NCBI GenBank assembly: GCA_943369205.1
Contig: CALRMP020000003.1
Coordinates: 17 to 64,016, forward strand
From: Gulosibacter massiliensis
Lineage (GTDB): Bacteria; Actinomycetota; Actinomycetes; Actinomycetales; Microbacteriaceae
Reading direction: 5' to 3'
DNA length: 64,000 nucleotides
The translations under genes were made by a program, and so were the position numbers. Every line of letters begins with the position of its first letter. Positions within the stretch are counted from its first letter, which is position 1. The notes under the pieces are model-generated. The model was not told the DNA's origin. It was given only the letters and a program-made list of their open reading frames with translations, and did not search any database. This document shows positions 15,208-37,167 of the stretch, piece after piece.

Positions 15208-15346
15208 TTCCGAGCGGAATAGCGTCGTTCGAAAGTTTTCCGAGATTGACCGCGGAGGTTCACGCGCGCGCAGCAATGCCTAGTGTGGCGTCAGCTCCGT
15301 CGGCGTCGCTGTCGGAAGCGACCGACCCCTCGAGAGGCTCTCACCC

Positions 15347-19182: not shown

Positions 19183-19577
19183 TGTTGATTACTCGCTTCC
19201 GAAACGGCGGCGAGCGCGCGAGCTCGCTGCAAACCCAACTCCACACACAGAACGCCGATGATGATCAGGACGATTCCGGCAAACATGACGGGCGTGAGTG
19301 GATCGCCGAATAGCAGGTGCGCGAAGACGGCGGTCAGGAGGACTCCGCACGCTCCCCAGATTCCGTAGGCCACGCCGACGGGCATTCCCGCAGCGAGCAC
19401 AAGGCCTAAGAGAGCGAGCGAGGTCGTGTAGCCGATGACGACGACCACAAAGAAGGCGGGAGTCGTTTGGGCGGCGCTCAGCGAGAGCGAGGCGGTCACC
19501 TCTACCGCGATCGCGAGCGCCAGAATTGCCCCAGCTCGGCCCCACAGGGGAGTTCGGGGGGTGGTCGAGACCGTCAC
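19179..19577 (-). CDS. SMR-family exporter subunit (paired with 18859-19182)
   Basis: The GTG start (complement of 19575-19577) overlaps the upstream stop (GTGA). The TM1 Glu is in LALAIAVEVTASLSL. A 4-nt overlap joins it to the next SMR gene. The start is uncertain; the track ORF extends to 19646. Confidence 0.8.
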   Translation of the reverse strand: MTVSTTPRTPLWGRAGAILALAIAVEVTASLSLSAAQTTPAFFVVVVIGYTTSLALLGLVLAAGMPVGVAYGIWGACGVLLTAVFAHLLFGDPLTPVMFAGIVLIIIGVLCVELGLQRARALAAVSEASNQQ

Positions 19578-21916: not shown

Positions 21917-22884
21917 TGCCGAGCCTCCTCCGTCTGGTTTCTTTGCGCTGTGGTGCGCCGGTTCTCCAGCGCACGCACGAGTGCCGTGGTCGATGCCATC
22001 AGGTCACTCGCGGGCGGTTGCGATGGCGCTCCGGTTCGAATGGCGTCGACGATCGCTCGGAGCAGACCGGCGTCGATGGGGTCGCGCTCTTCGCGGCGAG
22101 TTCCCGCGGCGGTGGTGACCTCGATCGTGCGGGCGATTCCGTCGACCGCAAGAAGCCCCGCGGTTCCGACGATGCGAAGTTCATCCCGGCCCCACGGCTC
22201 GCCGGGGGTCTTCAAGTAGTCAACGACCACGCTCGCGATAGCGCCGTCATCGAATTGGGCGCTCACGATCGCAGCCATCCGCATGTCGCTCTCCGCGGGA
22301 TCCCCCGCGGTCGTTTCCAGGACGCTCACCGAGTGGATCGCCTGGCCTGTCACCATGCGCGCGACGTCGAGCCCGTATCCCGCGGACTGGAGAACCAGCC
22401 CACCCGTGAGTGATTCGTTGGTTGGCCGCCACGGTGCCCACGGGTACGAGCGGTGCGTCGTCACCAGCACCACCTCGCCGATCTCGCCCGCGGCGACGAT
22501 CTCACGCACGCGGCGGTAGGGCTCATCGAAGAACGTCGTCGCTCGCTCCCAGAGCCCCCCGGGGCTTGCCGCTGCCGCCGCGGCCAGACGCGCGAGATCG
22601 ACGGTGGTCGTGGCAGCGGGCCGTTCGATGATCACGTGGCACCCCGCCTCCAAGGCGATGATCGCAAGATCGACTTGCAGCGATCGGGGTGCGACATCCA
22701 CCGCAACGAGGCGTGTTGTCGGCTCTGCGCAGATCTCGGCAGCGCGAGCTCGAAGGTGCGTGACATCACCGAGGGTCGCATCCACTCGCGCGGTGATGTG
22801 CGCCCCGGCAACCGCGACGTCGTGCTCTGTCGGCTGGTGCCCGCCGACGCCCAGCAGGGCGAGACCAATGGATTCGGAACTCAC
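21913..22884 (-). CDS. Divergent Gfo/Idh/MocA-like oxidoreductase
   Basis: 323 aa. It has a weak Rossmann motif (LALLGVGGH), IERP in place of EKP, and a C-terminal alpha/beta domain pattern. It has 4-nt overlaps on both sides. Confidence 0.6.
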   Translation of the reverse strand: MSSESIGLALLGVGGHQPTEHDVAVAGAHITARVDATLGDVTHLRARAAEICAEPTTRLVAVDVAPRSLQVDLAIIALEAGCHVIIERPAATTTVDLARLAAAAAASPGGLWERATTFFDEPYRRVREIVAAGEIGEVVLVTTHRSYPWAPWRPTNESLTGGLVLQSAGYGLDVARMVTGQAIHSVSVLETTAGDPAESDMRMAAIVSAQFDDGAIASVVVDYLKTPGEPWGRDELRIVGTAGLLAVDGIARTIEVTTAAGTRREERDPIDAGLLRAIVDAIRTGAPSQPPASDLMASTTALVRALENRRTTAQRNQTEEARQ

Positions 22885-23882
22885 GAATTCGCTCCACGAA
22901 GCGCGTCAAGAATCGTCACGACGTTCACAATCGCCTCAGGGTCGACCAGCTCATCGACTGATTCGCCCCGAGCGGCGCGTCGCAAGATATCCCACTGGTA
23001 ACCCGACTCTCGCTGAACCTCTCGGTGCTCGACGACGCGGTGACCATCCACGACCGCGGAGACGGAGAGGGAGACCGTGTCGCCCTCGACAACTCCAATG
23101 TCTCGACGCACCGTGCCACGCTCGAAGCTGACTTCGAGCGACAAACGATACGGCTGACCGTCATCGATGCAGAACGACGAGTACACGGTTCCGATCGTGC
23201 CGTCGGCGTGCATGAGAAGGACGGCAGCGTTGTCACTCGTCGGGCGCCCCGTGAACACTCGTGACGCGACGACGTGCGTTTTCTCGACGGGGCCAAAGAG
23301 CCGACCGATGTCGGCGAAGAGGTAGATGCCGAGGCGCGTCAGTGGTGCAGCCGGCACGCGATCGGGGTCGTCGTACCAACTGCCGTCCGCGGTCTCGCGA
23401 TAGCTGCACCAGGTTGACGCGTGGTACCCGACGGGGCGTCCGAGATTGAGCCGAGTGATCCACTCGTCGATCACTCGGATGTCGGCCGACGGCGTCGGAG
23501 TCGGAGAGTTGACCAACACGGGAACGCCTGCATTGCGAGCTGCATCGAGGGCGCGCCGAGCTGCCGCGACAGACGTCTCGAACGGCTTGGTCGTCATGAC
23601 GGGCATTCCCGCCGCGACGCACCGTTCGACAAGCGGCCCTCGACCATCAGGGCCGACCATGAGCGCGACGGCTTCGATTCGATCGTCCGCCAGGATGGCG
23701 TCGAGGTCGTCGTATACGGCGACGTCGAATTCGGCAGCCACCTCACGGGCGACCTCCTGATTGAGATCACACACGCCGACGAGCTCGCACTCGAGCGCAC
23801 CGGGCCCCGAGCAGATCTCATTCTCAATCAGCCACCGGCCGAATCCCAGACCGACGACGGCGATGCGCAGTCGATCGGTCAT
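22881..23882 (-). CDS. Gfo/Idh/MocA-family oxidoreductase
   Basis: MTDRLRIAVVGLGFGRWLIE is followed by MTTKPF (EKP-like); 333 aa. Confidence 0.85.
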   Translation of the reverse strand: MTDRLRIAVVGLGFGRWLIENEICSGPGALECELVGVCDLNQEVAREVAAEFDVAVYDDLDAILADDRIEAVALMVGPDGRGPLVERCVAAGMPVMTTKPFETSVAAARRALDAARNAGVPVLVNSPTPTPSADIRVIDEWITRLNLGRPVGYHASTWCSYRETADGSWYDDPDRVPAAPLTRLGIYLFADIGRLFGPVEKTHVVASRVFTGRPTSDNAAVLLMHADGTIGTVYSSFCIDDGQPYRLSLEVSFERGTVRRDIGVVEGDTVSLSVSAVVDGHRVVEHREVQRESGYQWDILRRAARGESVDELVDPEAIVNVVTILDALRGANS

Positions 23883-26359
23883 GGTCTCGCCGCCCGCAGC
23901 TCGATGCCCTCAAGAGTGCCGCCGAGTAGCTCGAGCTCTTCACGCGTTACGCCATCCGCGTCGAGCGCGCGGTGGTAGATGCCCCAGCCCGTGCCGGCCG
24001 CAAAGAAGCACGAGAACGTGTCTCCCTCAAGCCGAGGGTCGAACGACAGCCATCCTTCGCGCGCGTTCATGGCGAAACCGCTGAGCGCCACCAGAACCCC
24101 GTAGCTCGCGAGTGATCGTGCGTAGTGGTGACCACATTCGACTTCGTTCCACGGGTTGCGTCGCACACCGTCGTGGCGTTCGCGTGTTGTGCGGACCAGC
24201 GTGAGTGCTTCATCGACGAAGCCCTCATAGATGAGGTGGGTCGCTACCTGGTACTCGATGCCGGTCCACACTTCGTCCGAGTAGGGGAACGGCAAACGCG
24301 GCCGCCCGCCGTCGGGCCAGGTGCAGAGCACGAGGCCCGACTCGTCGTTGAGTGCATACGTGCGCTGCGGATTGTGATGACGCGCGAACGACGAAAGGTA
24401 ATTGTGGTCGAACACGGCCTTAACCGCCCCGGCGACATGCTCACGCGGAAGGACGTATCCGAGCCCTGCGAGGTGGGCCAGTGTCTGCCCAAATACCTGA
24501 TCGGCAAGGCAACCACGACCGTATTGATAGCGAGCCGAGTCGACGTCGTCAATGGCCTGGATGTAGTACTCGCCACCCCACAGCAACTCGTCCGTGCGTC
24601 TCGTTCCTCGCTCGAAGGCCTCCCGATATCGTGTTGCACTTTCATCGTCTCCGAGGTGACGTGCGAGCTCTTCCCCTGCGCGCAGAGCCGCCAAGAAGAT
24701 GGAATTCACCATCGAGTTGGGCCCGTGGAAGTCAATGTCGTAGGTGTTGAACTGATCCGTGTCGAGAACGCCATCTCCGTCGGAATCCCAGCGGCTGAAA
24801 GCGTAGTCAAGAGTGGATTGCGCTGCCGGCCACACCTCGGCCAGAAACGCGTCGTCGCCAGAGATCCGCCACTCGCGATAGAGCCGCACGAGGGTACCCA
24901 GCTGGCCGTCTGCGGCGGGAACGTGATCGTGTCCTGGCATTCCCCAGGGCCGATACGAGCGGAAATTCATCTTGCCGTCAGCATCTGTCTCGACGAGGTA
25001 TTCGTTGCGACGCATCTGCATCTCGAGCTCGGGGAACAAGTAGGCGACGGTCTGCGCATAGTTCCACACGTGCGTGCACGTGCCCTCACAGCATCCTTCT
25101 TCATCGAAGCAGCCCTCCCACGCGAGAAACTGGCCGTCATCGAGCCAGATGCACGTGGGGCTCCGCACGACCGTGACCATGGCGCTCACCGCGTCGATCA
25201 CCTGCCACGGCAGAGTCGAGGAGGCCATGGCTCGGCGGAAGCCGCGAGAGGACGTCTCGAGATGTGTGAGGTTGTCGATCGTGTGACGCACAACGGCCCA
25301 CGCATCATCGAAACGCGCGTAACGCTTGCGGACAACGGGATATTCACCGACTGGAAGATGGTCGGTGTCGATAGCTTTTCCGCGGTAGTCGGCATCGTAC
25401 ATTCGGCGACTCCACGAGCGCACTCTCTGCGGAAAGTGCCACGCGAGCTGAAACTCGAAGGTAGCCGTCTCGCCCGGGGCGATCACATTGTGGATCGCGA
25501 GGGAACCGGTCTGATCGCCACTGACGTCTTTGGTGTCCTTCTGTGCGTAGGTTGATTCGGCTTCCAGGCGCCCGTCTGTGCAGAGGTCGTCCCAGAGGTC
25601 TTGAAGACCGTCCCACCAGCCGCCACGCAACCAACTGCGCTTGTGGCTGACGTCGGTCGCCGTCGTGGTCAGCGACATCGTGCCGTAGTAGAGGCTTTCC
25701 TTTGGCAGGTCTTTCGGTTGGAAAAACAGACCGCGAATGACACCGTCATCTCGGTACTCGTTGAGGTTCTCGCTCGCCGAATCGAAGTCTTGCCAGGTGT
25801 GACGGTGGTAGTCGATGAGGGAGGTCATGTTGCCGAGTGATCCCACGACTGAGACATCCACGGGCTCACGTGAGGTGTTGCGCACGTGGTACCGGATCAG
25901 TGCGACCGGAAGGCCCGAGGCGTCCGCATCGAGAGGGACGAAAGGCGTGAACGACTCCATCGTGACCTCGACCGGCATCTCGGAGTCGCGCAAGTCAACG
26001 GTAAAGAATGGGTACTCACCGTAGGCGACCGATGACTCGAATCGCGGCAGCCCCGCAACCTCGTGGTCGACGAAGCCGCGCGCTTGCGAGAACGGGGGAG
26101 TGAGCTGCGACTCAAGCACCTTGGCAAGGTGCGTTCCCGCAGCTGTCGCGACGCGGATCGCGAAGAAGGAGTTCGGGTTGTAATTCCTCTTGCCAGGAGT
26201 ATCGAAAATCTCCCAGTCCTTGAGTTGCCCGCGGGCGCCGACCGAGACATTGCCCGTTCCGATTCCGCCGAGAAGGAAGGCGACTTGGTCGGCGGTTCCG
26301 GGAAACCTGCGCGGCTCTCGCTGCTCGCGAAGCTCGGAGTGGGAGGAGGGAATCGTCAT
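23879..26359 (-). CDS. GH116-family glycoside hydrolase (GBA2-type beta-glucosidase family)
   Basis: 826 aa. The N-terminal FLLGGIGTGNVSVGARGQLKDWEIFD is the GH116 N-domain signature. The C-terminal DQFNTYDIDFHGPNSMVNSIFLAAL looks like the DUF608 catalytic domain. Confidence 0.85.
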   Translation of the reverse strand: MTIPSSHSELREQREPRRFPGTADQVAFLLGGIGTGNVSVGARGQLKDWEIFDTPGKRNYNPNSFFAIRVATAAGTHLAKVLESQLTPPFSQARGFVDHEVAGLPRFESSVAYGEYPFFTVDLRDSEMPVEVTMESFTPFVPLDADASGLPVALIRYHVRNTSREPVDVSVVGSLGNMTSLIDYHRHTWQDFDSASENLNEYRDDGVIRGLFFQPKDLPKESLYYGTMSLTTTATDVSHKRSWLRGGWWDGLQDLWDDLCTDGRLEAESTYAQKDTKDVSGDQTGSLAIHNVIAPGETATFEFQLAWHFPQRVRSWSRRMYDADYRGKAIDTDHLPVGEYPVVRKRYARFDDAWAVVRHTIDNLTHLETSSRGFRRAMASSTLPWQVIDAVSAMVTVVRSPTCIWLDDGQFLAWEGCFDEEGCCEGTCTHVWNYAQTVAYLFPELEMQMRRNEYLVETDADGKMNFRSYRPWGMPGHDHVPAADGQLGTLVRLYREWRISGDDAFLAEVWPAAQSTLDYAFSRWDSDGDGVLDTDQFNTYDIDFHGPNSMVNSIFLAALRAGEELARHLGDDESATRYREAFERGTRRTDELLWGGEYYIQAIDDVDSARYQYGRGCLADQVFGQTLAHLAGLGYVLPREHVAGAVKAVFDHNYLSSFARHHNPQRTYALNDESGLVLCTWPDGGRPRLPFPYSDEVWTGIEYQVATHLIYEGFVDEALTLVRTTRERHDGVRRNPWNEVECGHHYARSLASYGVLVALSGFAMNAREGWLSFDPRLEGDTFSCFFAAGTGWGIYHRALDADGVTREELELLGGTLEGIELRAARP

Positions 26360-27234
26360 TGCGAATCCTTATCGGCGACGTGAACGGTGCCAACGGCAAG
26401 CCGGGGCATCTGACGTTCGAGCACGGGTGATCCCGGCAGCATCGCTTCGACGTTGCCGGAAGGATCCACCACGGACCCGCTCCCACCGTGGTACAACCTG
26501 CGCCCGTCGTATCCGGTCATGTTGACCGCCGCGAAAGCCCGTCGGTACCGCACCGACGACGTGACGGCTTGAGCGGGGAAGGCGTGCTCCGTTGAGCGGG
26601 CGACGTGGTCGGCGAGACGCGCCGAGTCGTTGAGTTCTCGTTCTGAAACGGAGCCCTCGCGTGTGCCACCCGCGGCCGTCGGCAGCAACAGAAGTTCAAC
26701 GCCGAGCCGTTCGAGAATCTCGTCAAGTCCGCGCACGCCGAGATCGGCGCAGATGACAATCGCCGCAGTGACTCCGGCCACGTCGAAGACCTCGAAGTGA
26801 CTGCACCCCTCTGGCACATGACCGATCTCTTCCGTGTCGTCGAAGTAAAGCTCGACGCTGGGGTCGAGGGGGCTTTCGAGTGGCGTGACCCGATGCTTGC
26901 GCTGAGAAACGAAGTGCCCGTCAGGCCACACGGCATAGTGAGCGAGGAATCGTTGTGGTCCGTCAGCCTCGACGTAGCCGGCAAGGATGACGAGCTTGTA
27001 CTGTGCCGCCATCGCCGCGATTGCGCGATAGATGGGGCCATCGCCAGCACGCTCTGCGGTCGCGATCACGTCGGGGTACCCGCCGTACCCACTCGCGCTC
27101 ATCTCGGGGGTGAGGAGAAGATCGGCGTCGAGCGCTGCGGCCTGTCGAGCGAGCGTGTCGATCTGCTCCAGGTTTCCTTCCACGTCACCGGGAAGAGAGT
27201 ACGTTGACCCGATCGCGATGGTGAGGTCAGTCAT
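26356..27234 (-). CDS. Carbon-nitrogen hydrolase (nitrilase-superfamily amidase)
   Basis: Starts MTDLTIAIG, with an ATGA overlap to the upstream HEAT gene. Apparent Glu-Lys-Cys triad contexts are LLLTPEMSASGY, SQRKHRVTP and AAIVICADLG. Confidence 0.8.
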   Translation of the reverse strand: MTDLTIAIGSTYSLPGDVEGNLEQIDTLARQAAALDADLLLTPEMSASGYGGYPDVIATAERAGDGPIYRAIAAMAAQYKLVILAGYVEADGPQRFLAHYAVWPDGHFVSQRKHRVTPLESPLDPSVELYFDDTEEIGHVPEGCSHFEVFDVAGVTAAIVICADLGVRGLDEILERLGVELLLLPTAAGGTREGSVSERELNDSARLADHVARSTEHAFPAQAVTSSVRYRRAFAAVNMTGYDGRRLYHGGSGSVVDPSGNVEAMLPGSPVLERQMPRLAVGTVHVADKDSQ

Positions 27235-27809
27235 GAAGAGGCTCCCAGCATGTCTAGAGCTTTGCGCGACTCGACAGTGAGGCACCACTCATCAAGCGTT
27301 ACGGCGAACTGAAGATGCGGGATCGCGTCGGAATCTCCTACGCGACCGAGGGCTTTGGCGGCGGCCGCCTTCACCACGAAGTCCTCGTCCTCGCCGCGCA
27401 AGACGTCGTGCAGCAGCTTCCTCCAGGGGCCGTCTGCTGTGCCAATCGCGTAGACGGCGAGGATGCACGCTTGCCGCACCCGCCCGCGGCATTGCCAGTC
27501 ATCACGCTGGGTGGCCGTCGGCGGTGTGGCCCAAATGGCCGTTGTCGACACGAGCTGTTCTGCGGCGCGAGTGTCGTCGAAACTGCCGACGAACTCGAGA
27601 ACCTGGGGCTGACCATAGAGATCGCGCGAATCCTCGATCTCCATCATGGAACGCAAGGTGTCGAGCCACGTCGCGTCGCCGGTCTCGCCCATTCCGATCG
27701 CGGCCGCGTAGCGCACGCGCCAATTCGGGTGGCTGGAGTTCTCGGCCATCGCGTCCGGATCGATCAGCACGCGTTCCATGAGCTCGTAATCCCCGCCGAT
27801 CTCGCTCAT
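27231..27809 (-). CDS. HEAT-repeat protein
   Basis: 192 aa. Repeats of the type NWRVRYAAAIGMGETGD and DFVVKAAAAKALGRVGDSDAIPHL fit PBS-lyase/HEAT-like repeats. No catalytic motif was recognised. Confidence 0.6.
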   Translation of the reverse strand: MSEIGGDYELMERVLIDPDAMAENSSHPNWRVRYAAAIGMGETGDATWLDTLRSMMEIEDSRDLYGQPQVLEFVGSFDDTRAAEQLVSTTAIWATPPTATQRDDWQCRGRVRQACILAVYAIGTADGPWRKLLHDVLRGEDEDFVVKAAAAKALGRVGDSDAIPHLQFAVTLDEWCLTVESRKALDMLGASS

Positions 27810-30094
27810 GCGTCACCCCCCACGCCCACCTCAAGGTTGTATGTCCGGTGATTCGTGATCACGCGCACGTGGCGGCCTGACCTCTCCACCGACTCAATGC
27901 GCTCTTCCTCCACGGAGTAGCCAATGCCCATTCCGCCGGTCAGGCCGATCGTGCCCCATCCTTCTCCGTCGTAATGGCCGCGCGGCACCGAGAGAGCGAC
28001 GACGACCTCGACGCGATCTGACGTGTCGAAGCGCTCAGGAATACGAACACGGGGGGCGATCAGTTCGCCCGAGACGCGGAAGGCGGAGAGGTCGACCTCG
28101 TCGCCGTCGAAGAAGAGACGCGCATCGTGCATTCCGACGGGCAAGCGCAACCAGCTCGCCTCACGTTTCTTGGCGAGCACGATGCGGTACCACCACCTTT
28201 GTGTGGCGGGCAGGTCCGCTTCGAGGTAGGCAGGCAACTGCATCGCGACGCGAGTCGAGGTGGCGCTCAGAGCCACTACGGCCTCGTCGTAGGTGAGATT
28301 GGCCTCGATGTCGGGGACGACAGACACTGGCCCGACGGACGCTTCTGCCTCGAACACTCGCGAGGTCAGAGCGACGAAAATGCGTTCAACGTCGGTCGCC
28401 TCGGAAGTGAAGTCAATGAGATCACTCCCGTCGTCTGGCTTCGCCGGTACGTGGTCGGCTCTCTCGATGAGCACCGTGGATGCTGCGTCGACGTCGATGA
28501 GCTGCAGCGTTACCCCCTCCGGTGTCTGAACGCGTGCTCCTCCGGGTATCAGCGATGCGCCAGGCCGCATGACGAAACGCGAGGTGACGCGATGCGGTAG
28601 CTGGGTGCGAACGCGGTCAACGATGGTCACGATGCCGCCCTCGTGGAGCTGTGTACGGCGAGACACCTCCAGCACATCTGGCATGTTCTCGCGATAGATC
28701 GGAGTGACGTCAGCCCACACCCATTCGCCACGATCGTGGGCACTCGCTGACGTCTGAGGGCCATCACCGTGAGCCCGCATCCCTTCACGGCCGTCGAGAA
28801 GGATGACGGAGTGAGCGCCAGCGCACCCGTCTCCGAAGTTGTATCGATGGGAACTGTCCATGGCGAGGAAGGAGACTTCGCGCCACGTGTCGTCGAACTG
28901 AAACCTGTGGCGTGCGCCCTCCGTTGGCGACCCGTCTGCCGAAATCGGAACGCGATAGCCGCCGAACAGCACGGCGTTCGGGTTGACATGTGCCCGGGTC
29001 GGATAAACGGGCTCTGATTCGTCCCACATCTGTACGACGTAGCGATCCCCGTCGAGAGCCGAGAGGGCAGCTCCAACCTCGGGCTCGAACCAGTTGCGCC
29101 ACGCGGGATCATGCTGTGTCGAGCCGTGGGATGGCCACCAAATGAGCGTCCACACGAGGTCGTCGTAGGCCCAGCCGATTCCGATGTCATAGGTCCAAAT
29201 GACCTCGCGATCGAGCACCTGAAAGAACAGATCTTCACCGGCTCGCCGGGCGCCATAGGCGAGGCATGACCGCTCCCCAAACTGATATCCATAGTTGTCC
29301 CACGGCAGCAACAGCCCGCCCGGCATGAACGAACGCGCCATCATGCGCAACACTGCGACGGGCTCCGCGCCGTCGCGCTCGGTGGGGGTCTCGAGTACGC
29401 TCGTCAGCCCGCCGACGCGTTCCAACACCTCGACGGCGAGCGGGACAGCTGGCGCAACCACGCAGTTCATGTAGTCGCTGCCCTCGCCGGTGTACCCACT
29501 ACGGGGAAGGTCCGAGAGCATGCTCGGGAGTCGGCGGAGGCCATCGCGCTTCATGATCTCGGCCATTCGTGATGGCTTCTCGCCGCCCGAGAAGAGATGG
29601 CCGACGATTGTCGACGAGAGCACCAGTGACAGTGCCTGATTGTCGACACACTCGGGCTCGGGCTTGTCTCTCATGCCGTAGTAGAAGTTGACGAAGTGGT
29701 ACTCCACGAGCTTCTGACCGATGGTGTCTGCCTCGTCGGGGGTGTACGCCCCGATCGAGCACAGCCACTGGAAGTACAGCGCGACCTTTGCGTGAGGAAA
29801 CGCGAAGCACCAGAAGTGAAACTGGAGTCCGGTCGAGAACGACATGGGGTCAAGCTTCGAGAGATAGGCGTCGATGATGTGACGGGCCCGAGCGATGTCA
29901 CCGGAGTCGCGAGTGATGACGGCGACGAAAGGGACAAACCAGCCAAAGTCGTCTGGTGCTCGCCGCGCGCTATCGCGCAGCATTGTCCACAGTTCGAATC
30001 GACGACCGTCGGCTGGCCCGAGCGACAGCACGTCTGCGCGGAGGTCGCCAACGTTATCGAGCAGGAATGGTTCGGCGTTGACCATGTGTCTCAT
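27806..30094 (-). CDS. Large uncharacterised protein, possibly heparinase II/III-like (alpha-toroid plus beta-sandwich)
   Basis: 762 aa with no signal peptide. The N-terminal part is helical and Trp/Phe-rich. The central AHVNPNAVLFGGYRVPISADGS sits where heparinase II/III proteins have H-x-H-x-D...D-x-G. The ORF is solid; the function is tentative. Confidence 0.45.
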   Translation of the reverse strand: MRHMVNAEPFLLDNVGDLRADVLSLGPADGRRFELWTMLRDSARRAPDDFGWFVPFVAVITRDSGDIARARHIIDAYLSKLDPMSFSTGLQFHFWCFAFPHAKVALYFQWLCSIGAYTPDEADTIGQKLVEYHFVNFYYGMRDKPEPECVDNQALSLVLSSTIVGHLFSGGEKPSRMAEIMKRDGLRRLPSMLSDLPRSGYTGEGSDYMNCVVAPAVPLAVEVLERVGGLTSVLETPTERDGAEPVAVLRMMARSFMPGGLLLPWDNYGYQFGERSCLAYGARRAGEDLFFQVLDREVIWTYDIGIGWAYDDLVWTLIWWPSHGSTQHDPAWRNWFEPEVGAALSALDGDRYVVQMWDESEPVYPTRAHVNPNAVLFGGYRVPISADGSPTEGARHRFQFDDTWREVSFLAMDSSHRYNFGDGCAGAHSVILLDGREGMRAHGDGPQTSASAHDRGEWVWADVTPIYRENMPDVLEVSRRTQLHEGGIVTIVDRVRTQLPHRVTSRFVMRPGASLIPGGARVQTPEGVTLQLIDVDAASTVLIERADHVPAKPDDGSDLIDFTSEATDVERIFVALTSRVFEAEASVGPVSVVPDIEANLTYDEAVVALSATSTRVAMQLPAYLEADLPATQRWWYRIVLAKKREASWLRLPVGMHDARLFFDGDEVDLSAFRVSGELIAPRVRIPERFDTSDRVEVVVALSVPRGHYDGEGWGTIGLTGGMGIGYSVEEERIESVERSGRHVRVITNHRTYNLEVGVGGDA

Positions 30095-30948
30095 AGCTTG
30101 ACGGCCCCGGCCGTCAAGCCGCTCACGAAGAAGCGCATCGAGACGAAGAAGGCCACCAGCAGAGGAAGAGCCGCGAGGGCATAGCCGGCAAGCAACATTC
30201 CATAGTCGAGCCCGGCCGCAGACGAGAGCTTGAAGATCCCCACCGTGATCGTTCGCATCGCAGGGTCAGTCAGTGTCACGAGCGGCCAGATGAAGTCGTT
30301 CCAGATGAAGAGGATCACGTTCAGCGACATCAGCGCCACCATCGGGCGAAGCAACGGCAGAGCGAGGTGCCAGAAGATCCGAAGCTCGCTCGCACCATCC
30401 ATGCGCATCGCCTCGAAGAGCTCGCGCGGCTGGCTGTCGACGAAGGTCTTCATGACGAACACCCAGAACGGCTGGGAGGTGCCCATGCAGAACAAGGCAA
30501 TCACGAAAGGCGTGTTCAGGAGGCCGAGGTTCACCGCCAGCACGAACGAGGGCACCAGGAGCATGACGCCGGGCATGAACATCTTGATGAACAACAACAT
30601 GAACAGCGGCCGGCGGAGCGGGAACCGCAGCGCACTGAACGCGTAGCCCGCGATCGTCGCAGCGCCGACCGTGAGCACCACGCTCAGCGCGGCGTACACG
30701 ATCGTGTTGACGTAGTACGGCGCGATGTAGACAAAGGCCCGCGCATAGTTGTCCACATTGAGGGGCAATGTCGGAAGGAAGAAGTTGTCGAGGATCTGGT
30801 CGAGGTCCTTGAACGACCCGATGATCGTGAGATACAGCGGGAACAGCAACATCAGAACGATGGCTGCCATGAAGAGGTTCTTGAATACTCCGGCCGCTTC
30901 GAACCGGACCCGCCGAGGACGCCGCCGGGGTGCTTGCACAGTGGTCAT
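30091..30948 (-). CDS. Carbohydrate ABC transporter permease (MalG/LplC-like)
   Basis: 285 aa with 6 TMs and an EAA-type loop (LFEAMRMDGASELRIFWHLALP). Confidence 0.9.
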   Translation of the reverse strand: MTTVQAPRRRPRRVRFEAAGVFKNLFMAAIVLMLLFPLYLTIIGSFKDLDQILDNFFLPTLPLNVDNYARAFVYIAPYYVNTIVYAALSVVLTVGAATIAGYAFSALRFPLRRPLFMLLFIKMFMPGVMLLVPSFVLAVNLGLLNTPFVIALFCMGTSQPFWVFVMKTFVDSQPRELFEAMRMDGASELRIFWHLALPLLRPMVALMSLNVILFIWNDFIWPLVTLTDPAMRTITVGIFKLSSAAGLDYGMLLAGYALAALPLLVAFFVSMRFFVSGLTAGAVKL

Positions 30949-30951
30949 CCG

Positions 30952-31974
30952 TCAGTCCCGGTTCTTCAGGAGCTTGAGGGCGGTCAAGGAGAGCGTGAGC
31001 GCAGCGATGAACAGCATGAGGCCCAGCGCGTAGGCGTAGCCGTAGTCGGGCGCTCCGGTGTTCGGGAACGCCTTGAAGTACATCAAGAGACCGGGAGTAA
31101 TGAGGCCGTTGTGAACGGACGGGTTGTAGAAGACCAGCTGCACCGCGTAGGTCGTGATCGCCGTGCCAATGACCCCGATGATGATGAGGCGAAACTGGCC
31201 GAGGATCAACGGGAACTCGAGGTCGAAGAACTTCCGAATGGGGCCAACGCCATCGAGCTTCGCGGCATCCCAGACTTCGTCACCAATCGCCTGAATGCCG
31301 CCGAGGTAGATGAGCACGGTGTTGGCCGTGACGAAGGGGATTCCCGTGAGAAGAATCGTCCACTTGATGAGGTCGGGGTCTCCCAAGAACGGGACGCGCC
31401 CGAAACCGAGATCGTCGAGAAGCGTATTGATGGCCCCAAAGTCGTAGCCCAGGATGAAGATCCACAGCAGGGTGAAGACAAGAGCAGGAACCACCATGGG
31501 TAGGACGATGAGAACGCGGTAGAAGTACTGCAATCGTGCCCCGCGGATGCGGAACAGTACGACGGCGGTCACGATCGACGGCAGCATCAAGACGAGTGCG
31601 GCTACCAGGAAGAACATCATGTTTCCCAGCGACACGTGGAACTCCGGATCAACCAGCACACGTCGGAAGTTGTCGAAGCCGACAAACACCAACTCGGGGT
31701 TTCGATTTGTCCACGTGAAGAATGACCGCACGAACCCGTCGAGTGTCGGAATCCAGTCGAAAATGATGTTGCTGATGATCGCTGCTGAGATGAACGCCAA
31801 CCCGATCCAGTTCGATGAGCTCCGCAGGCGCTTTTTGACCTGACGCGGACTGTCATCGGGGTCAAGGTCGAGAATCAGGTACTGAACTCTTCGCCAAAAC
31901 GAGCGGGGGACGCCAGCGGACTGACGCCCCCCGTCGCTAGGGGCAGAGATGTTCGTCTCAGCCAAGTGGCTCAC
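30952..31974 (-). CDS. Carbohydrate ABC transporter permease (MalF/LplB-like)
   Basis: 340 aa with an EAA-type loop (VWDAAKLDGVGPIRKFFDLEFPL). Confidence 0.9.
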   Translation of the reverse strand: MSHLAETNISAPSDGGRQSAGVPRSFWRRVQYLILDLDPDDSPRQVKKRLRSSSNWIGLAFISAAIISNIIFDWIPTLDGFVRSFFTWTNRNPELVFVGFDNFRRVLVDPEFHVSLGNMMFFLVAALVLMLPSIVTAVVLFRIRGARLQYFYRVLIVLPMVVPALVFTLLWIFILGYDFGAINTLLDDLGFGRVPFLGDPDLIKWTILLTGIPFVTANTVLIYLGGIQAIGDEVWDAAKLDGVGPIRKFFDLEFPLILGQFRLIIIGVIGTAITTYAVQLVFYNPSVHNGLITPGLLMYFKAFPNTGAPDYGYAYALGLMLFIAALTLSLTALKLLKNRD

Positions 31975-31976
31975 TC

Positions 31977-33623
31977 TTAACGCTGCTCCGTCAGGTCGCC
32001 GGTCATGTTGTGGTAGTAGGTGTTGTACAGGTTCTCGCGCAATTGCGCGAACGCGAGAGCCCGCTCCTTACCTTCCTTCTCCTCTTCCGTGGCCGCATCA
32101 AGCTGCGCTTGCGCGTCAGCAGTTGAGGCAGCCAGGGTAGCCGAGTCGGGGATATCGGCGGCCCACTCCGTGAACGCAACCTGTTCGACGAGTTCCTCCG
32201 CCGTAAGGTCGCCGTTCAAGTACTGAGTGAAGACGACATCCCACCCAGCGCGACCCCACTCGATCACGGTGTAGCCGAGGACCTCTTGTGCGAATCCACC
32301 CTCAGGCTCACCGACAACGAACGGTTCGAGGCTCTCGACGAGTTCGACTCCGACCACAGGAGAGAACGACTGAGCGGTCTCGACGTACTTCGCCTGCTGC
32401 TCAGCGCTCGACAGGAACTGCAGGAAGTCGATAGCAACTTCGAGCTTCTCCGGGTCGTCCGCGAGGGTCTTGTTGAGCGTGAAGCCATACTCGTGGCGAC
32501 CAGCCCCACTCGCTGTTGCCGGACGGTCGACCGCGTACGGTGCAGCCGCTTCAGCCTCATCCGAGGTGATCCAACCCTTGTCCACGGCGTAGTCGAGGGT
32601 GTCCGCTCCGAAGTACGGCAACTGGAAGAGGCCGTATCCGTCGGGGAAGGTCGCGTCGCTGAGGGCACTGATGAGCGAGCCGTAGTCGGAGAAGCTCGTC
32701 TGCATCAACGCAGCCTTACCACTCGCGAACGTGAGGGTCTCGGTCTCGGGCGAGTTCTCCGTCCAGCTGTCCTGGAAGTAGCTCACGTGCTGCTTGATGA
32801 GCGCGAACATCGCTGGGTAGTACGGAAGCGAGGTCAGTGGCATCTCGGAGCCACCCGCGTAGTTGGTCAGCGTGTAGATCTTGTCGAAGAACAGGTCGCC
32901 CGACAGATCCGTGTTGCTGAACTCTTCCGCGAAGAACCGGTCGGCATACCGCTCACCGAATCCGTATCCGATCTGCGACACCTTTCCTCCGACGTCGCTT
33001 GAGCCGGCGATGGGGGCGATGTCAGCGTTGCCGTCAAGCGCCTCCATCCACTCGAAGAACTGCTTGAAGTCCTGAGGAGTCTCGTCGGGGTTCAGCCCGG
33101 CGTCCTGGACGATCTTCTTGTTGAAGATGTACATCCGGCCTGCGAAAACCTCCGGGTTTCCATCGTTCGGCACGAAGAGAATCGAGTTGGCGTTCACCCC
33201 GTTGTCTTCAACAGGGAACGCACCTTCGCCGCCCACGAAGGTGTCCATCCACAGTTCGCCTTCGCTGTAGGCGCTCTCGGCCGCGAGGTACTCGCGCAGG
33301 TCGAGAAGGTTGGGCGCGAAGGTCAAGCGTTGGCCGGACTTCATCTGAATGATGTCGGGGGCCGTGCCGCCAGCGAATCCGGTCTCGAGGATGCTGCCGT
33401 ATGAGGCGTCCTCTTCGTTCTTGATCGTGATCCGAACATCGGGGTTCGCAGCTTGGTAGTCGTTGATGGCCTGCTGGTAACCCTCGTAGTAGTTGGTGAG
33501 GGAATCAGGCCCGTGCCACGTGAGCAACTCGAGCGTCACTCGCGGTTCGGGCGCCGTGCATCCGCTCAGAGCTGTGAGCGCTAATGCAGCGCTGACAGCG
33601 AGAGCGATGGGCTTCTTGTTCAT
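31977..33623 (-). CDS. Large extracellular sugar-binding lipoprotein (LplA-like family-1 SBP)
   Basis: The signal peptide and lipobox are MNKKPIALAVSAALALTALSGC. The 548-aa size is typical of oligosaccharide-type SBPs. Confidence 0.9.
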   Translation of the reverse strand: MNKKPIALAVSAALALTALSGCTAPEPRVTLELLTWHGPDSLTNYYEGYQQAINDYQAANPDVRITIKNEEDASYGSILETGFAGGTAPDIIQMKSGQRLTFAPNLLDLREYLAAESAYSEGELWMDTFVGGEGAFPVEDNGVNANSILFVPNDGNPEVFAGRMYIFNKKIVQDAGLNPDETPQDFKQFFEWMEALDGNADIAPIAGSSDVGGKVSQIGYGFGERYADRFFAEEFSNTDLSGDLFFDKIYTLTNYAGGSEMPLTSLPYYPAMFALIKQHVSYFQDSWTENSPETETLTFASGKAALMQTSFSDYGSLISALSDATFPDGYGLFQLPYFGADTLDYAVDKGWITSDEAEAAAPYAVDRPATASGAGRHEYGFTLNKTLADDPEKLEVAIDFLQFLSSAEQQAKYVETAQSFSPVVGVELVESLEPFVVGEPEGGFAQEVLGYTVIEWGRAGWDVVFTQYLNGDLTAEELVEQVAFTEWAADIPDSATLAASTADAQAQLDAATEEEKEGKERALAFAQLRENLYNTYYHNMTGDLTEQR

Positions 33624-33877
33624 GCATGCCTCCTTGAATGCGGTTGGGGGTGAAGCGTTTGCCCGGGCACGAAGCCCAGGCCAATCCGTGAATCGGGAAT
33701 GCGGTTTCCCAGAGTTTCGGGTAGGAATCGATCGTTGTCAAGGACTCGTTGAATCTCGTGACAATTTCGCGACCCGCGCTTGTGAGGGGAGTGCAAAGAT
33801 GGCATTGTATGCGATCAGAAAGCGTTTACCCACAGTCGGGCATCAACCCGAGTTCGTACCACTGGAGGAACCTCACG

Positions 33878-35080
33878 ATGCACACCGTGCCGCGCATGCA
33901 AGAGACGACCGAGGCCCCCGCCGACAACTCTCCGCGGGAAATCGGTGTCATCGTCAATGGAGCGACGGGACGAATGGGGTACCGCCAACACCTCGTGCGG
34001 TCGCTGCTCGCGATCAGAGACCAAGGGGGTTTCGAGCTTCCCGACGGTTCTCGGGCGACAGTGCGGCCTCTCTTGGTCGGTCGTAGCGAACCAAAACTGC
34101 GGGAGATCGCTGCGCAGCATGGCATTGACGACTTCACGACTGATCTCACGTCAGCCCTGGCCGACCCTCGGTGGGAGATCTATGGCGACTTTCTGACAAC
34201 GAGAGCTCGTGCCGCAGCGATCCGCCAAGCGATCGCAGCAGGGAAGGCGATCTATACCGAAAAGCCTTCCGCCGAGACGTACCCCGAGGCGCTTGAGCTC
34301 GCACAGCTCGCGCGGGCGGCGGGCGTACGCACGGGCGTGGTGCACGACAAGTTGTATCTTCCCGGCCTGCGGAAGCTGAAGGTACTGATCGAGTCAGGAT
34401 TCTTCGGTCGAATTCTCTCGGTGCGCGGTGAGTTCGGGTACTGGGTGTTCGAGGGTGACTGGCAAGTCGCCCAGCGGCCAAGTTGGAACTATCGCGCCGA
34501 GGATGGGGGAGGAATCGTCGTCGACATGTACCCCCACTGGTGCTACGTGCTGGAGAACCTGTTCGGCACGATTTCGAGCGTCTACACGCAGTCCGCGATT
34601 CACATTCCGGATCGCTGGGACGAAGCGGGCGCACACTATCGAGCCACGGCCGAGGATGCTGCATACGGAGTCTTCGAGATTGAGGGGGGCATTGTCGCCC
34701 AGATCAACTCGTCATGGACAGTGCGAGTGCATCGCGACGAACTCGTCGAGTTTCACGTTGATGGCACGCACGGGTCAGCTGTCGTCGGCTTGTTCGGAGC
34801 GCAGATTCAGCATCGATCGGCAACGCCGAAGCGCGTGTGGAATCCCGACCTCGTCGATGACCACGACTACAGCGCTGACTGGGCCTCGATGCCCGCGAAC
34901 GAGGTCTTCCAGAACGGCTTCAAGCAACAGTGGGAAGAGTTCCTGACGGCGCATGTTCTCGGCGAGCCCTACCGCTTTGGCCTCTTGAGCGGCGCACGGG
35001 GGATGCTCCTCGCGGAGGCCGCGTTGGAGTCGAGTCGTCTCGGTCGAAAGGTCGAGATCCCTGCACTCATCGGGGAATGA
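33878..35080 (+). CDS. Gfo/Idh/MocA-family oxidoreductase
   Basis: ATG 33878 has GGAGGA 8 nt upstream. IGVIVNGATGRMG is the Rossmann motif and IYTEKP the EKP motif. The track start at 33749 is a read-through. Confidence 0.85.
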   Translation: MHTVPRMQETTEAPADNSPREIGVIVNGATGRMGYRQHLVRSLLAIRDQGGFELPDGSRATVRPLLVGRSEPKLREIAAQHGIDDFTTDLTSALADPRWEIYGDFLTTRARAAAIRQAIAAGKAIYTEKPSAETYPEALELAQLARAAGVRTGVVHDKLYLPGLRKLKVLIESGFFGRILSVRGEFGYWVFEGDWQVAQRPSWNYRAEDGGGIVVDMYPHWCYVLENLFGTISSVYTQSAIHIPDRWDEAGAHYRATAEDAAYGVFEIEGGIVAQINSSWTVRVHRDELVEFHVDGTHGSAVVGLFGAQIQHRSATPKRVWNPDLVDDHDYSADWASMPANEVFQNGFKQQWEEFLTAHVLGEPYRFGLLSGARGMLLAEAALESSRLGRKVEIPALIGE

Positions 35081-35084
35081 CGCC

Positions 35085-37156: not shown

Positions 37157-37167
37157 ACTCTCGGGCG

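Follow-up and report, generated by a model that had tools for sequence, protein, structure and literature searches.

Polysaccharide lyases of families PL12, PL15, PL17, PL33, and PL35 belong to a fold class in which an (α/α) toroid is followed by an antiparallel β-sandwich. Among them, the PL15 oligo-alginate lyase Atu3025 (PDB 3a0o/3afl) is a multidomain protein of ~770 amino acids (aa) and is an exo-acting cytoplasmic enzyme for imported oligosaccharides. The PL33 and PL35 GAG lyases (BtPL33HA, 8r7x; GAGase II/VII, 8khv/8khw; and 9o3q) comprise ~580 to 620 aa with a two-domain catalytic core. We know of no HEAT-repeat partner for PL15 lyases and of neither a HEAT partner nor a carbon-nitrogen (CN) hydrolase in PL33 or PL35 loci. 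The same fold is found in the heparinase II/III family (Pfam PF07940; PL12 heparinase III, 5jmf/4mmh; PL17 Alg17c, 4ojz), and a His-rich, metal-binding H-x-H-x-D motif is typical of heparinase II and PL17. Dermatan-sulfate epimerase 1 (6hzn) is a eukaryotic Golgi biosynthetic enzyme that also shares the fold. HEAT repeats of the PBS-lyase type are found in CpcE/F and NblB, in the designed alphaRep proteins, and in MTH187, while the αββα fold of the nitrilase superfamily is represented by Nesterenkonia AN1 amidase (3hkx), mouse Nit2 (2w1v), the Pyrococcus amidase PH0642 (1j31/6ypa), D-carbamoylase, and N-carbamoylputrescine amidase. Here, we describe a bacterial operon in which relatives of these three protein types are encoded side by side.

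Three coupled genes in a ten-gene operon

The window (the whole 64,000-nucleotide stretch of Gulosibacter massiliensis DNA that was analyzed) contains an operon with the following genes, in order of transcription:

31977..33623, minus strand: solute-binding lipoprotein of a CUT1-type sugar ABC importer, 548 aa, first gene of the operon (Pfam SBP_bac_1 and SBP_bac_8)
30952..31974, minus strand: ABC permease, 340 aa (Pfam BPD_transp_1; syntenic)
30091..30948, minus strand: ABC permease, 285 aa (Pfam BPD_transp_1); its stop codon and the 762-aa start codon form an ATGA overlap
27806..30094, minus strand: 762-aa cytoplasmic protein of an uncharacterized family, predicted polysaccharide-lyase fold (AF2 model and Foldseek)
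27231..27809, minus strand: 192-aa HEAT-repeat protein, apparent dedicated partner of the 762-aa protein (Pfam HEAT_2; synteny; fusions)
26356..27234, minus strand: 292-aa nitrilase-superfamily amidase (CN hydrolase) of an uncharacterized clade (Pfam CN_hydrolase)
23879..26359, minus strand: GH116 glycosidase, 826 aa, putative subfamily 4 type (exo-β-D-arabinofuranosidase-like; match to ExoMA2)
22881..23882, minus strand: GFO/IDH/MocA oxidoreductase, 333 aa (Pfam)
21913..22884, minus strand: second GFO/IDH/MocA oxidoreductase, 323 aa (weaker Pfam Rossmann-domain match; NCBIfam; synteny)
19574..21916, minus strand: GH139 glycosidase, 780 aa, end of the overlapping chain (Pfam DUF5703_N, 271 bits)

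The preliminary description had noticed three overlapping open reading frames (ORFs) between the ABC permeases and GH116, and the ORF coordinates (30094..27806, 762 aa; 27809..27231, 192 aa; and 27288..26356) and junction sequences bear this out: all three are intact, lie on the minus strand, and are flanked by the permease genes on one side and the GH116 gene on the other. Seven of the nine junctions in the operon are ATGA or GTGA overlaps, including every junction from the second permease to GH139. ATGA is found at the permease/762, 762/HEAT, HEAT/CN hydrolase, CN hydrolase/GH116, and GH116/GFO junctions, and GTGA at the two that follow. The three genes are thus translationally coupled inside a ten-gene operon. 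A fucose/D-arabinose-isomerase-like gene lies nearby, at 17154-18788.

Inspection by eye revealed no hydrophobic N terminus in the 762-aa, HEAT, or CN hydrolase proteins, in agreement with the earlier statement that the 762-aa protein has no signal peptide. In contrast, the solute-binding protein, whose gene is syntenic in related loci, has a lipoprotein-type N-terminal signal ending in LSGC; no close relative of this protein was found among solved structures.

A predicted polysaccharide-lyase fold with a divergent putative active site

The AF2 model of the 762-aa protein (pLDDT of 93.5, pTM of 0.93) consists of a helical toroid (residues ~15 to 320), a β-sandwich (~335 to 595), and a third β-domain (~600 to 755) resembling the N-terminal sugar-binding domain of GH2. 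A Foldseek search with this model returned PL15, PL35, PL33, PL17, PL12, and dermatan-sulfate epimerase structures at E values of 1e-16 to 1e-11, with a probability of 1.0 for the five lyase families. The best match was to the PL15 entries, Atu3025 and exoHep (E value of 1.7e-16), the highest target-normalized TM-scores (0.6 to 0.69) were to PL33 and PL35, and dermatan-sulfate epimerase 1 aligned over the whole length (8e-14). By this model, then, the protein has the (α/α) toroid and antiparallel β-sandwich that define the PL15/17/12/33/35 fold class, together with an extra sugar-binding-like β-domain. These matches are carbohydrate-active lyase folds and not unrelated ones, and the original designation of the protein as heparinase-II/III-like holds at the level of fold, even though its score for Pfam Hepar_II_III_C (PF07940) is 20.0 bits, under the gathering cutoff of 24. 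Two relatives, P0004 and P0032, score 29.5 and 23.2 bits, respectively.

Similarity in sequence is far more limited, with 10 to 14% identity to characterized lyases in the structural matches. We found no significant sequence similarity to any characterized CAZy polysaccharide lyase member, phmmer against PDB sequences gave no lyase match, and NCBIfam gave no match. A profile built from the family reached the GUS N-terminal domain (7e-11), Atu3025 (7e-10 over the β-sandwich), and PL33/PL35 (2e-8 to 2e-6); the reach to Atu3025 and PL35 requires a diverse family profile and is confined to the sandwich domain. The 762-aa protein is similar to Atu3025 in size and in its toroid-plus-sandwich organization but differs in its overall sequence (14% identity), in a toroid with no detectable sequence match, in the GH2-N-like third domain, in the residue that follows a conserved Asn, and in its apparent need for a HEAT partner. 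The PL33 and PL35 enzymes share the two-domain core at 10 to 14% identity and have no third domain, and dermatan-sulfate epimerase 1 is 11% identical and biosynthetic, whereas the context of the 762-aa protein is catabolic. The family is small: a set of 1.84 billion proteins yielded only 153 representative clusters.

Lyases of this fold class use a Tyr and a His for catalysis in the toroid, with an Asn as neutralizer, and have a further His in the sandwich. Residues conserved in the 762-aa family are N152-Q153, E204, Y208, R367, H369, N373, D387, Y467, R479, D493, and H501. The protein had been described as carrying NPN where heparinase II/III-like proteins carry a His-rich motif. NPN is indeed present, within H-V-N-P-N at residues 369 to 373, but the motif is not lost as a whole: its first His is retained, when H-V-N-P-N is equated with the canonical H-x-H-x-D by spacing. 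Next to the conserved Asn (N152), where we would expect a catalytic His, the family has Gln (Q153). In addition, the conserved Y208 is preceded at a distance of four residues by an invariant Glu (E204), an unusual arrangement in a uronate site.

The HEAT-repeat protein appears to be an obligatory partner

The 192-aa protein scores 60.1 bits for HEAT_2 (cutoff, 27.7) and 43.8 bits for HEAT_PBS (cutoff, 20.9). It had been thought to consist only of HEAT-like repeats; the repeats are confirmed, but they are interrupted by a conserved non-HEAT insertion of ~45 residues (~58 to 104). It shares its repeat type with the PBS-lyase-type proteins but differs from them in this insertion, in invariants of its own (W30, E59, Q67, W105, R108-G-R110, Q113, D143, C176, and E180), and in being tied to a glycan enzyme and not to phycobiliproteins. 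Low NCBIfam equivalog scores were obtained for NblB (31.8 bits; cutoff, 300) and for CpcE and CpeY (23 to 24 bits; cutoffs, 330 to 600).

The HEAT gene lies directly downstream of the 762-aa gene in all 36 related genome loci, which represent at least seven phyla (Actinomycetota, Chloroflexota, Bacillota, Lentisphaerota, Armatimonadota, Verrucomicrobiota, and Planctomycetota), and it adjoins the large gene in further loci beyond these. Fusions occur in both orders: HEAT repeats are joined to the N-terminal side of the large protein in P0004 (33% identity; E value of 5e-26) and to its C-terminal side in relatives of ~1,050 to 1,150 aa, in which the C-terminal HEAT region strongly matches alphaRep. 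The suggestion that the HEAT protein serves the large protein is strengthened by this pattern, and, judging from gene order and fusions, it appears to be an obligatory partner.

The CN hydrolase is probably active and fits no characterized branch

The upstream GTG at 27288 would extend the CN hydrolase to 310 aa. Translation almost certainly begins instead at the ATG at 27234 and yields 292 aa, because this ATG forms the ATGA overlap with the HEAT stop, orthologue N termini read MT[DEQ]L..., and a 99% identical protein has been called at 292 aa. The protein scores 69.3 bits for PF00795 (cutoff, 23.2). As proposed earlier, it keeps a Glu/Lys/Cys triad in TPEMS (E44), RKHRV (K113), and ICADLG (C162) contexts; these residues and a second Glu (E120) are invariant in alignments of 20 and of 59 orthologues and match the Glu-Lys-Glu-Cys tetrad of PH0642 residue for residue (E42, K113, E120, and C146). 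The AF2 model (pLDDT of 96.3) had 211 PDB matches at an E value of ≤1e-3, and the 50 listed were all superfamily members with the αββα fold. The closest are amidases and carbamoylases acting on small substrates, at 15 to 22% identity and TM-scores of 0.63 to 0.71. With its tetrad invariant and its predicted structure amidase-like, the protein is probably active, as first supposed.

The protein is about equidistant from several branches, and NCBIfam equivalog scores of 25 to 39 bits (cutoffs, 355 to 500) include nitrilase at 37.9 bits (cutoff, 479), the NAD synthetase glutaminase domain at 38.6 (410), and N-carbamoylputrescine amidase and deaminated-glutathione amidase at 25.1 and 25.0 (both 500). 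On these scores, it fits no characterized nitrilase-superfamily branch, and its carbohydrate-locus setting is also unlike that of known amidases. After the second Glu, the family has a 16-residue insertion of its own that could make for a larger pocket. The modeled structure is compatible with an amide-decorated substrate and equally with a small downstream metabolite.

Recurrence of the module in other genomes

Co-occurrence of the three genes, on which their proposed association depended, is complete for the 762/HEAT pair (36/36) and conditional for the CN hydrolase, for which synteny holds in 20 of the 23 ABC-transporter loci, spanning three phyla, versus 0 of 12 loci without the transporter. 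Taking the CN hydrolase as the anchor, we also examined 17 loci with sufficient flanking sequence. Seven carry the 762/HEAT pair, three (L065, L079, and L081) carry a second heparinase II/III-like family, to which the 762-aa family aligns weakly in hhalign (E value of 0.059), one carries a giant CBM9-family protein, and six have none of these. Because it is absent from all 12 non-ABC loci and lacks a lyase-like neighbor in 6 of the 17, the CN hydrolase is not mechanistically indispensable to the pair. The giant protein is a relative of one found beside the 762/HEAT pair in PVC genomes, and other carbohydrate-locus neighbors of the CN hydrolase include GH51, GH42, and a URO-D-like protein.

In Chloroflexota, the module forms a self-contained eight-gene cassette without a glycoside hydrolase, leaving the 762-aa protein as the sole candidate for bond cleavage; many freshwater Chloroflexota and gut Clostridia have the core cassette without GH116. 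The accessory glycosidases vary by lineage. A GH88 unsaturated glucuronyl hydrolase lies near a HEAT fusion and a PL8 adjoins the pair in L031 (a single locus each), and GH38 and GH92 neighbor the loci of relatives. Among cultured organisms, Paenibacillus silvisoli has the full cassette, with GH95 in the equivalent place, and Jiangella mangrovi has a HEAT-protein homologue. The module was sampled from freshwater, soil, and gut. A literature search found no paper on this gene cluster.

Neighboring glycosidases and oxidoreductases

The GH116 protein matches ExoMA2 (PDB 8ic6) at 730 bits, and its CTHVW and NFR motifs align with CTHVW and KFR of ExoMA2, so that the equivalents of His446 and Arg483 are kept, assuming a numbering offset of +4. 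ExoMA2 of Microbacterium arabinogalactanolyticum is an exo-β-D-arabinofuranosidase in which these two residues recognize substrate (PMC10509167). By homology, the GH116 protein is of this type (subfamily 4).

The GH139 protein matches 9hyq, which we take to be BT0984 from its residue numbering, at 579 bits. GQNQR and ALETYK align with AQNQR and ACETYK of 9hyq, preserving the Gln-Asn pair and the catalytic acid Glu, and two residues of the Trp triad are kept, W162 being the exception. BT0984 is an RG-II 2-O-methyl-fucosidase with a Q411-N412 pair and catalytic acid E561 (PMC12282258). The GH139 protein is accordingly of a predicted 2-O-methyl-fucosidase type. The oxidoreductase at 22881..23882 matched no NCBIfam equivalog; its gene is syntenic with that of the CN hydrolase in most ABC-type loci.

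Discussion

We tentatively favor, at somewhat short of an even chance, a reading in which the three genes form the core of a cytoplasmic glycan-catabolic cassette. The ABC system would import an acidic, uronate-containing oligosaccharide, and the 762-aa and HEAT proteins would act as a putative two-subunit enzyme that cleaves it, β-elimination being the likeliest mechanism. The HEAT subunit carries invariant Arg-Gly-Arg and Trp motifs and may help in substrate binding or in closing the cleft. The CN hydrolase would strip the substrate or a small product of an amide-type group (amide, carbamoyl, or formyl), the two GFO oxidoreductases would convert the released sugar for central metabolism, and GH116 and GH139 (or GH95) would be lineage-specific trimming glycosidases. 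GH88, PL8, GH38, and GH92 near relatives offer hints of acidic substrates and lyase chemistry.

Each half of this proposal has a competitor. That the CN hydrolase works off the glycan, either as an ω-amidase-like enzyme on a small downstream amide or carbamoyl metabolite or in nitrogen salvage, and is only loosely tied to the pair, is on the unlikely side but deserves weight: its closest structures (Nesterenkonia aliphatic amidase, Nit2, a P. horikoshii amidase with glutaramide, D-carbamoylase, N-carbamoylputrescine amidase, and formamidase) act on small molecules, and both its absence from the 12 non-ABC loci and the 6 anchored loci without a lyase-like neighbor fit a loose tie. Such independence sits poorly with translational coupling on both sides, with a position that is unchanged in 20 of 23 ABC-type loci from three phyla, and with recurrence beside two unrelated heparinase-like families and other carbohydrate loci, and the 16-residue insertion could enlarge the pocket. 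It is unlikely that the pair is no lyase and uses the fold for glycoside hydrolysis or for uronate C5-epimerization, as dermatan-sulfate epimerase does. The best structural matches are all lyases but one, GH88 and PL8 adjoin family members in two loci, and a catabolic import cassette would hardly have an epimerase for its sole large enzyme, although that one exception is the epimerase 6hzn, the Gln beside the conserved Asn, the Glu four residues before Tyr, and H-V-N-P-N suit nonlyase chemistry, and GH88, which usually acts after lyases, is missing from the window and from most loci.

Other readings turn on the substrate. A cassette for fragments of a complex acidic plant or microbial glycan (rhamnogalacturonan-II or a xanthan-like exopolysaccharide, for example) that enter as oligosaccharides through Gram-positive-type importers strikes us as quite unlikely. 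We know of no amide in RG-II or xanthan, so the CN hydrolase would be left without explanation, and the accessory glycosidases are not constant across lineages; the points in its favor are the closeness of GH139 to BT0984 with catalytic residues kept (PMC12282258), GH95 in the equivalent place in P. silvisoli, PL8, GH88, GH38, and GH92 beside relatives, and loci from freshwater, soil, and gut. Were the operon instead directed at D-arabinan (mycobacterial or corynebacterial arabinogalactan or lipoarabinomannan), with the three genes processing a decoration of that polymer, the 730-bit match of GH116 to ExoMA2 with both specificity residues kept (PMC10509167) and the isomerase-like gene at 17154-18788 would find a place, but no GH183 or GH172 was found among the operon genes scanned, the core cassette lacks GH116 in many freshwater Chloroflexota and gut Clostridia, and GH139 and GH95 speak for residues of the fucose or galactose type. 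We consider this decidedly improbable. Chance adjacency of three functionally unrelated genes deserves practically no credence, given the 4-nucleotide overlaps, and is refuted by gene order conserved across phyla together with the gene fusions.

A bolder form of the favored cassette reading, which we regard as improbable, is that the 762-aa and HEAT proteins would represent a hitherto unrecognized two-subunit glycan-cleaving class and a new CAZy family, with HEAT as part of the substrate site, and that in the CN hydrolase the nitrilase superfamily would have its first member dedicated to carbohydrate, for example by uronamide deamidation or removal of N-formyl or N-carbamoyl groups that enables cleavage.

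If the pair is enzymatic, it would be a carbohydrate-active family with an obligatory noncatalytic or cocatalytic repeat subunit; to our knowledge, polysaccharide lyases include no such arrangement. GH116 subfamily 4 and GH139, whose known settings are mycobacterial D-arabinan and Bacteroides RG-II, respectively, occur here in a different context. The association of the CN hydrolase clade with two unrelated heparinase-like families suggests an unrecognized role for the nitrilase superfamily in glycan catabolism. The 762-aa module is widespread (at least seven phyla) yet rare and has no name in Pfam or NCBIfam, and so marks a glycan or linkage with a breakdown route still to be understood; the existence of cultured carriers makes the module open to testing.

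Operon structure and gene starts

Ten open reading frames form a chain on the minus strand of the window, running from a binding protein to a 780-aa DUF5703_N protein.

Genes of the chain, in order
33623..31977, minus: binding protein, first in the chain
31974..30952, minus: ABC permease 1
30948..30091, minus: ABC permease 2
30094..27806, minus: 762-aa protein
27809..27231, minus: 192-aa HEAT protein
27234..26356, minus: CN hydrolase, 292 aa, ATG start
26359..23879, minus: GH116
23882..22881, minus: GFO/IDH/MocA oxidoreductase (GFO) 1
22884..21913, minus: GFO 2
21916..19574, minus: 780-aa DUF5703_N protein (GH139), last in the chain

The junction sequences contain a 4-nt ATGA or GTGA overlap at all junctions starting with permease 2, the signature of a translationally coupled operon. 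A simple promoter/terminator scan of the operon revealed no credible internal terminator; it returned fewer matches than shuffled sequence did and gave no help in delimiting the operon. The CN hydrolase was called mechanically as a 310-aa ORF with a GTG start 54 nt within the HEAT gene (window 27234-27288, minus strand). Its true start is likely the ATG at 27234, giving 292 aa, because of the ATGA overlap, the N termini of orthologs, and a called protein of the same length that is 99% identical. Judged by eye, the binding protein carries a lipoprotein signal, and none of the 762-aa protein, the HEAT protein, and the CN hydrolase has a hydrophobic N terminus (0/3), which argues that these three proteins are cytoplasmic and act on an imported compound. 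Neither the oxidoreductases nor the binding protein matched an NCBIfam equivalog, and no informative PDB relative of the binding protein was found. The G+C content of the window is 60-72%, and the nearest loci, in Microbacteriaceae and Rhodoglobus MAGs, share 70-92% amino-acid identity; together these assign the window to Microbacteriaceae.

The 762-aa protein has a lyase-type fold

The Pfam match of the 762-aa protein to Hepar_II_III_C is sub-threshold (20 bits against a cut-off of 24), NCBIfam gave zero matches, a phmmer search of PDB sequences found no lyase and only chance-level matches (phloem lectin), and a narrow ortholog profile reached Atu3025 only at an E value of 0.06. When 1.84 billion representative proteins were searched exhaustively with HMMER, only 153 clusters matched at E ≤ 1e-3, which makes this a small family. 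A confident AlphaFold model built from 69 family members (pLDDT 93.5, pTM 0.93) consists of a helical toroid (residues ~15-320), a β-sandwich (~335-595), and a further β-domain (~600-755). Foldseek matched this model to PDB structures with a probability of 1.0 throughout, at 10-14% identity; the matches include PL15 Atu3025 (E 1.7e-16), PL35 GAGase II and VII, PL33 BtPL33HA, PL17 alginate lyases, PL12 heparinase III, PL15 exoHep, and dermatan-sulfate epimerase 1. With a more diverse family profile, the sandwich domain matched Atu3025 (7e-10) and PL35 chondroitinase (2e-8), and the third domain matched the N-terminal sugar-binding domain of GH2 β-glucuronidase (7e-11). The heparinase-II/III-like character proposed in the preliminary description is thus borne out by model, structural search, and profile as a matter of fold, not of membership in an existing lyase family.

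Throughout the wide family, N152, Q153, E204, G205, Y208, W308, D311, W315, R367, P372, N373, D387, G388, Y467, R479, D493, and H501 are conserved; the ortholog set additionally conserves H93, Y201, Y268, Y270, H369, and H428. The canonical heparinase II/III-type motif is H-x-H-x-D followed by D-x-G. At that place, residues 369-373 of the 762-aa protein read H-V-N-P-N; going by the spacing, the protein seems to retain the first His and to have other residues in place of the next His and the Asp.

A second heparinase II/III-like family of ~1050-1100 aa (L065:4667-7918, L079:8993-12304, and L081:5505-8666 in our locus scans) directly adjoins CN hydrolase orthologs that are 48-49% identical to the window CN hydrolase. 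It scores above the Pfam cut-off for Hepar_II_III_C and just below that for Hepar_II_III_N, and it reads T-H-H-N-D-F-D...G-D-F-G at the motif. Its hhalign match to the 762-aa protein is too weak for transfer of catalytic residues.

The HEAT protein is the partner of the 762-aa protein

The HEAT protein matches Pfam HEAT_2 (60 bits) and HEAT_PBS. Across 25 orthologs it has a conserved ~45-residue non-repeat insertion and invariant residues (W30, L52, E59, Q67, W105, R108-G109-R110, Q113, A114, D143, C176, and E180) that are not found in generic HEAT repeats. We scanned one genome per species for synteny and obtained 42 loci with a 762-aa relative, 36 of which had at least 800 nt downstream and could be scored for HEAT adjacency. 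A HEAT gene lay immediately downstream in 36/36 loci, including one in which the two genes overlap (L001) and one with a divergent HEAT partner that retains the signature motifs (L036). This 762/HEAT pair occurs in Actinomycetota, Chloroflexota, Bacillota, Lentisphaerota, Armatimonadota, Verrucomicrobiota, and Planctomycetota, and it was also present in 4 loci found via remoter relatives and in Paenibacillus silvisoli (CP133017.1).

Gene fusions join the same two proteins. Relatives of ~1050-1150 aa from the representative search (P0017, P0018, P0022, P0024, P0032, P0040, and P0054) carry C-terminal HEAT repeats. At the other end, the N-terminal domain of P0004 (956 aa) is 33% identical to the whole length of the window HEAT protein (E 5e-26), and the remainder is a full-length relative of the 762-aa protein. 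Because the fusion is known in both orders, a read-through artifact is ruled out. Fusions are classical evidence of physical association, and they suggest that the 762-aa and HEAT proteins associate; the tie between the two that had been proposed earlier holds on both adjacency and fusion. A homolog search started from the HEAT protein returned stand-alone proteins only, of 171-230 aa, and a homolog is encoded in the cultured species Jiangella mangrovi.

The CN hydrolase retains an intact active site

The CN hydrolase (Pfam CN_hydrolase, 69 bits) was originally described as probably active on the basis of its triad contexts, and the site is indeed intact. E44 (TPEMS), K113 (QRKHRV), E120, and C162 (ICAD) do not vary among 20 locus-derived and 59 database orthologs. 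A profile alignment pairs them with E42, K113, E120, and C146 of PH0642 and shows 16 family-specific residues inserted after the second Glu. Pairwise phmmer alignment with Nit2 shifts the Lys by three residues, whereas the family profile places it correctly. The structures closest to the AlphaFold model (pLDDT 96.3) are only 15-22% identical (TM 0.63-0.71); they comprise a Nesterenkonia aliphatic amidase, Nit2, D-carbamoylase, Pyrococcus amidases, N-carbamoylputrescine amidase, β-alanine synthase, and formamidase. Against NCBIfam equivalogs, every score was ~10-fold under its cut-off. From sequence and model, the protein appears to be an intact nitrilase-superfamily member of amidase or carbamoylase type that fits no characterized branch. 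We also considered a true nitrilase acting on products of cyanogenic glycosides and rejected it, as no branch-1 nitrilase was present in the top sequence matches or the top 50 structural matches; the sole solved branch-type nitrilase matched was 8uxu (E 8e-4).

The CN hydrolase is an accessory to the 762/HEAT pair

Co-occurrence of all three genes, which the preliminary description had expected, depends on the type of locus. Where ABC permeases precede the pair, the gene after HEAT encodes the CN hydrolase in 20/23 loci; in contrast, it does so in none of the 12 loci without an ABC transporter. In those 12, mostly from the PVC group, the pair is preceded by a giant CBM9-containing protein. We also scanned metagenomes from the CN hydrolase outward and obtained 17 loci flanked by at least 2.5 kb on each side. 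The 762/HEAT pair was present in 7 of these, the distinct heparinase II/III-like family in 3, a relative of the giant CBM9 protein in 1, and none of the scored partners in 6; further neighbors are GH51, GH42, and URO-D-like proteins. Given these counts and neighbors, the CN hydrolase clade is recurrent in carbohydrate loci with a preferential link to lyase-fold proteins, and it is an accessory to the pair and not an obligatory third subunit.

The GFO pair travels with the CN hydrolase. In Chloroflexota, the cassette consists of exactly a binding protein, two permeases, the 762-aa protein, the HEAT protein, the CN hydrolase, and two GFO genes; genes for a sensor kinase and an AraC-type response regulator come next. 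The cassette contains no glycoside hydrolases, so the 762/HEAT pair is the sole candidate there for cleaving the imported compound. The full cassette is also found in the cultured species P. silvisoli.

Several other proteins recur in these loci. The CBM9 giant of PVC-group genomes is a 1320-1380-aa protein with CBM9 and NHL/FlgD-Ig-like parts (L022:5945-9916, L027:5773-9927, L040, L034, L041, L028, and L039); a 1776-aa relative (L073:8888-14218) adjoins a CN hydrolase ortholog, which ties the CN hydrolase and 762/HEAT modules indirectly. URO-D-like (uroporphyrinogen-decarboxylase/methyltransferase-family) genes lie near the pair, its fused form, or the CN hydrolase (L012:19576-20634, L006, L009, L017, L073:5474-7680, L105, L060, and L125:4630-5586). 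In seven loci from Clostridia, Bacillota, and Anaerolineae (L012:7777-10017, L009, L017, L020, L021, L033, and L055), the permease and 762-aa genes are separated by a gene for an unrelated Pfam-less protein of ~746 aa (46-51% mutual identity), which is probably a further uncharacterized enzyme of the same pathway; tblastn gave no match between the Clostridia protein and the window operon proteins. In Victivallales contigs (L044:71-2278 and L066), a CN hydrolase ortholog overlaps the end of a 735-aa Pfam-less protein. We rejected the idea that the latter is a disguised 762-aa relative, as no similarity was seen, and the 746-aa Clostridia protein is likewise unrelated to it. A 293-aa Pfam-less protein follows the GFO pair in P. 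silvisoli (L043:15430-16311), and a 34%-identical relative directly follows the CN hydrolase ortholog on a metagenome contig (L105:8888-9742).

Neighboring genes and the likely substrate

The window DUF5703_N protein (19574-21916, minus) is a GH139, scoring 579 bits to PDB 9hyq, which we take from its residue numbering to be BT0984. The Gln-Asn pair and the catalytic acid Glu are conserved in it, as are two of three Trp residues. BT0984 is a 2-O-methyl-α-L-fucosidase of rhamnogalacturonan-II breakdown (PMC12282258). More than 90% of GH139 members are from Bacteroidota, and only Bacteroidota and Ascomycota exceed 2% (PMC12282258), making an actinobacterial, cytoplasmic GH139 in this operon unusual. 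The GH116 (23879-26359, minus) scores 730 bits to ExoMA2, a GH116 subfamily 4 exo-β-D-arabinofuranosidase of Microbacterium arabinogalactanolyticum (PMC10509167). With a +4 chain-numbering offset assumed, it retains counterparts of two ExoMA2 specificity residues, His446 and Arg483, and is predicted not to be β-glucosidase-type. A scan of the operon genes and of flanking ORFs found no GH183 or GH172 D-arabinanase genes.

Two flanking clusters carry sugar-related genes. At 14185-18788 (plus) are a LacI regulator, a 399-aa GFO, and a 544-aa protein bearing an L-fucose-isomerase C-terminal domain; this set would be consistent with breakdown of L-fucose or D-arabinose following on from GH139 and GH116. 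At 33749-38211 (plus), divergent from the binding-protein gene, are a 443-aa GFO, a DUF993 protein (527 bits), a xylose-isomerase-like TIM-barrel protein, and a LacI regulator, which may belong to the same regulon as the operon.

Accessory glycosidases vary between lineages. In P. silvisoli, a GH95 takes the corresponding position and there are two GH116 genes, and the loci of three relatives encode GH38 or GH92 mannosidases. A GH88 unsaturated glucuronyl hydrolase lies three genes past the HEAT fusion P0004, and a PL8 lyase adjoins the 762/HEAT pair in one Actinomycetota MAG. Such hints, each from one or a few loci, favor an acidic, uronate-containing heteroglycan and lyase chemistry.

A proposed cytoplasmic cleavage module

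The evidence best fits a module working in the cytoplasm, where the pair would cleave, the CN hydrolase de-amidate, and the GFO pair convert. The lyase-fold and HEAT proteins would together form one enzyme that cleaves an imported oligosaccharide, presumably acidic, by β-elimination, and the HEAT subunit may take a direct part in catalysis or binding. The CN hydrolase would strip an amide-type group from the substrate or a product, and the GFO pair would transform the released sugar.

In the main rival for the pair, it is a hydrolase or epimerase built on the same lyase-type fold: a Gln stands in place of the expected His, a Glu lies close to the conserved Tyr, the His-rich motif is not retained, and one of the structural matches is an epimerase. 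For the CN hydrolase, the main rival to de-amidation of the glycan or its product is action on a small downstream metabolite, and all of its structural neighbors have small-metabolite substrates.

We found nothing relevant in the literature on this gene combination. The component superfamilies are known, and the system is not categorically new. As far as we can tell, however, three elements are undescribed: a lyase-fold family without a Pfam or NCBIfam name, its obligatory HEAT-repeat partner, and a nitrilase-superfamily clade within glycan loci. Cultured carriers such as P. silvisoli make the module testable.
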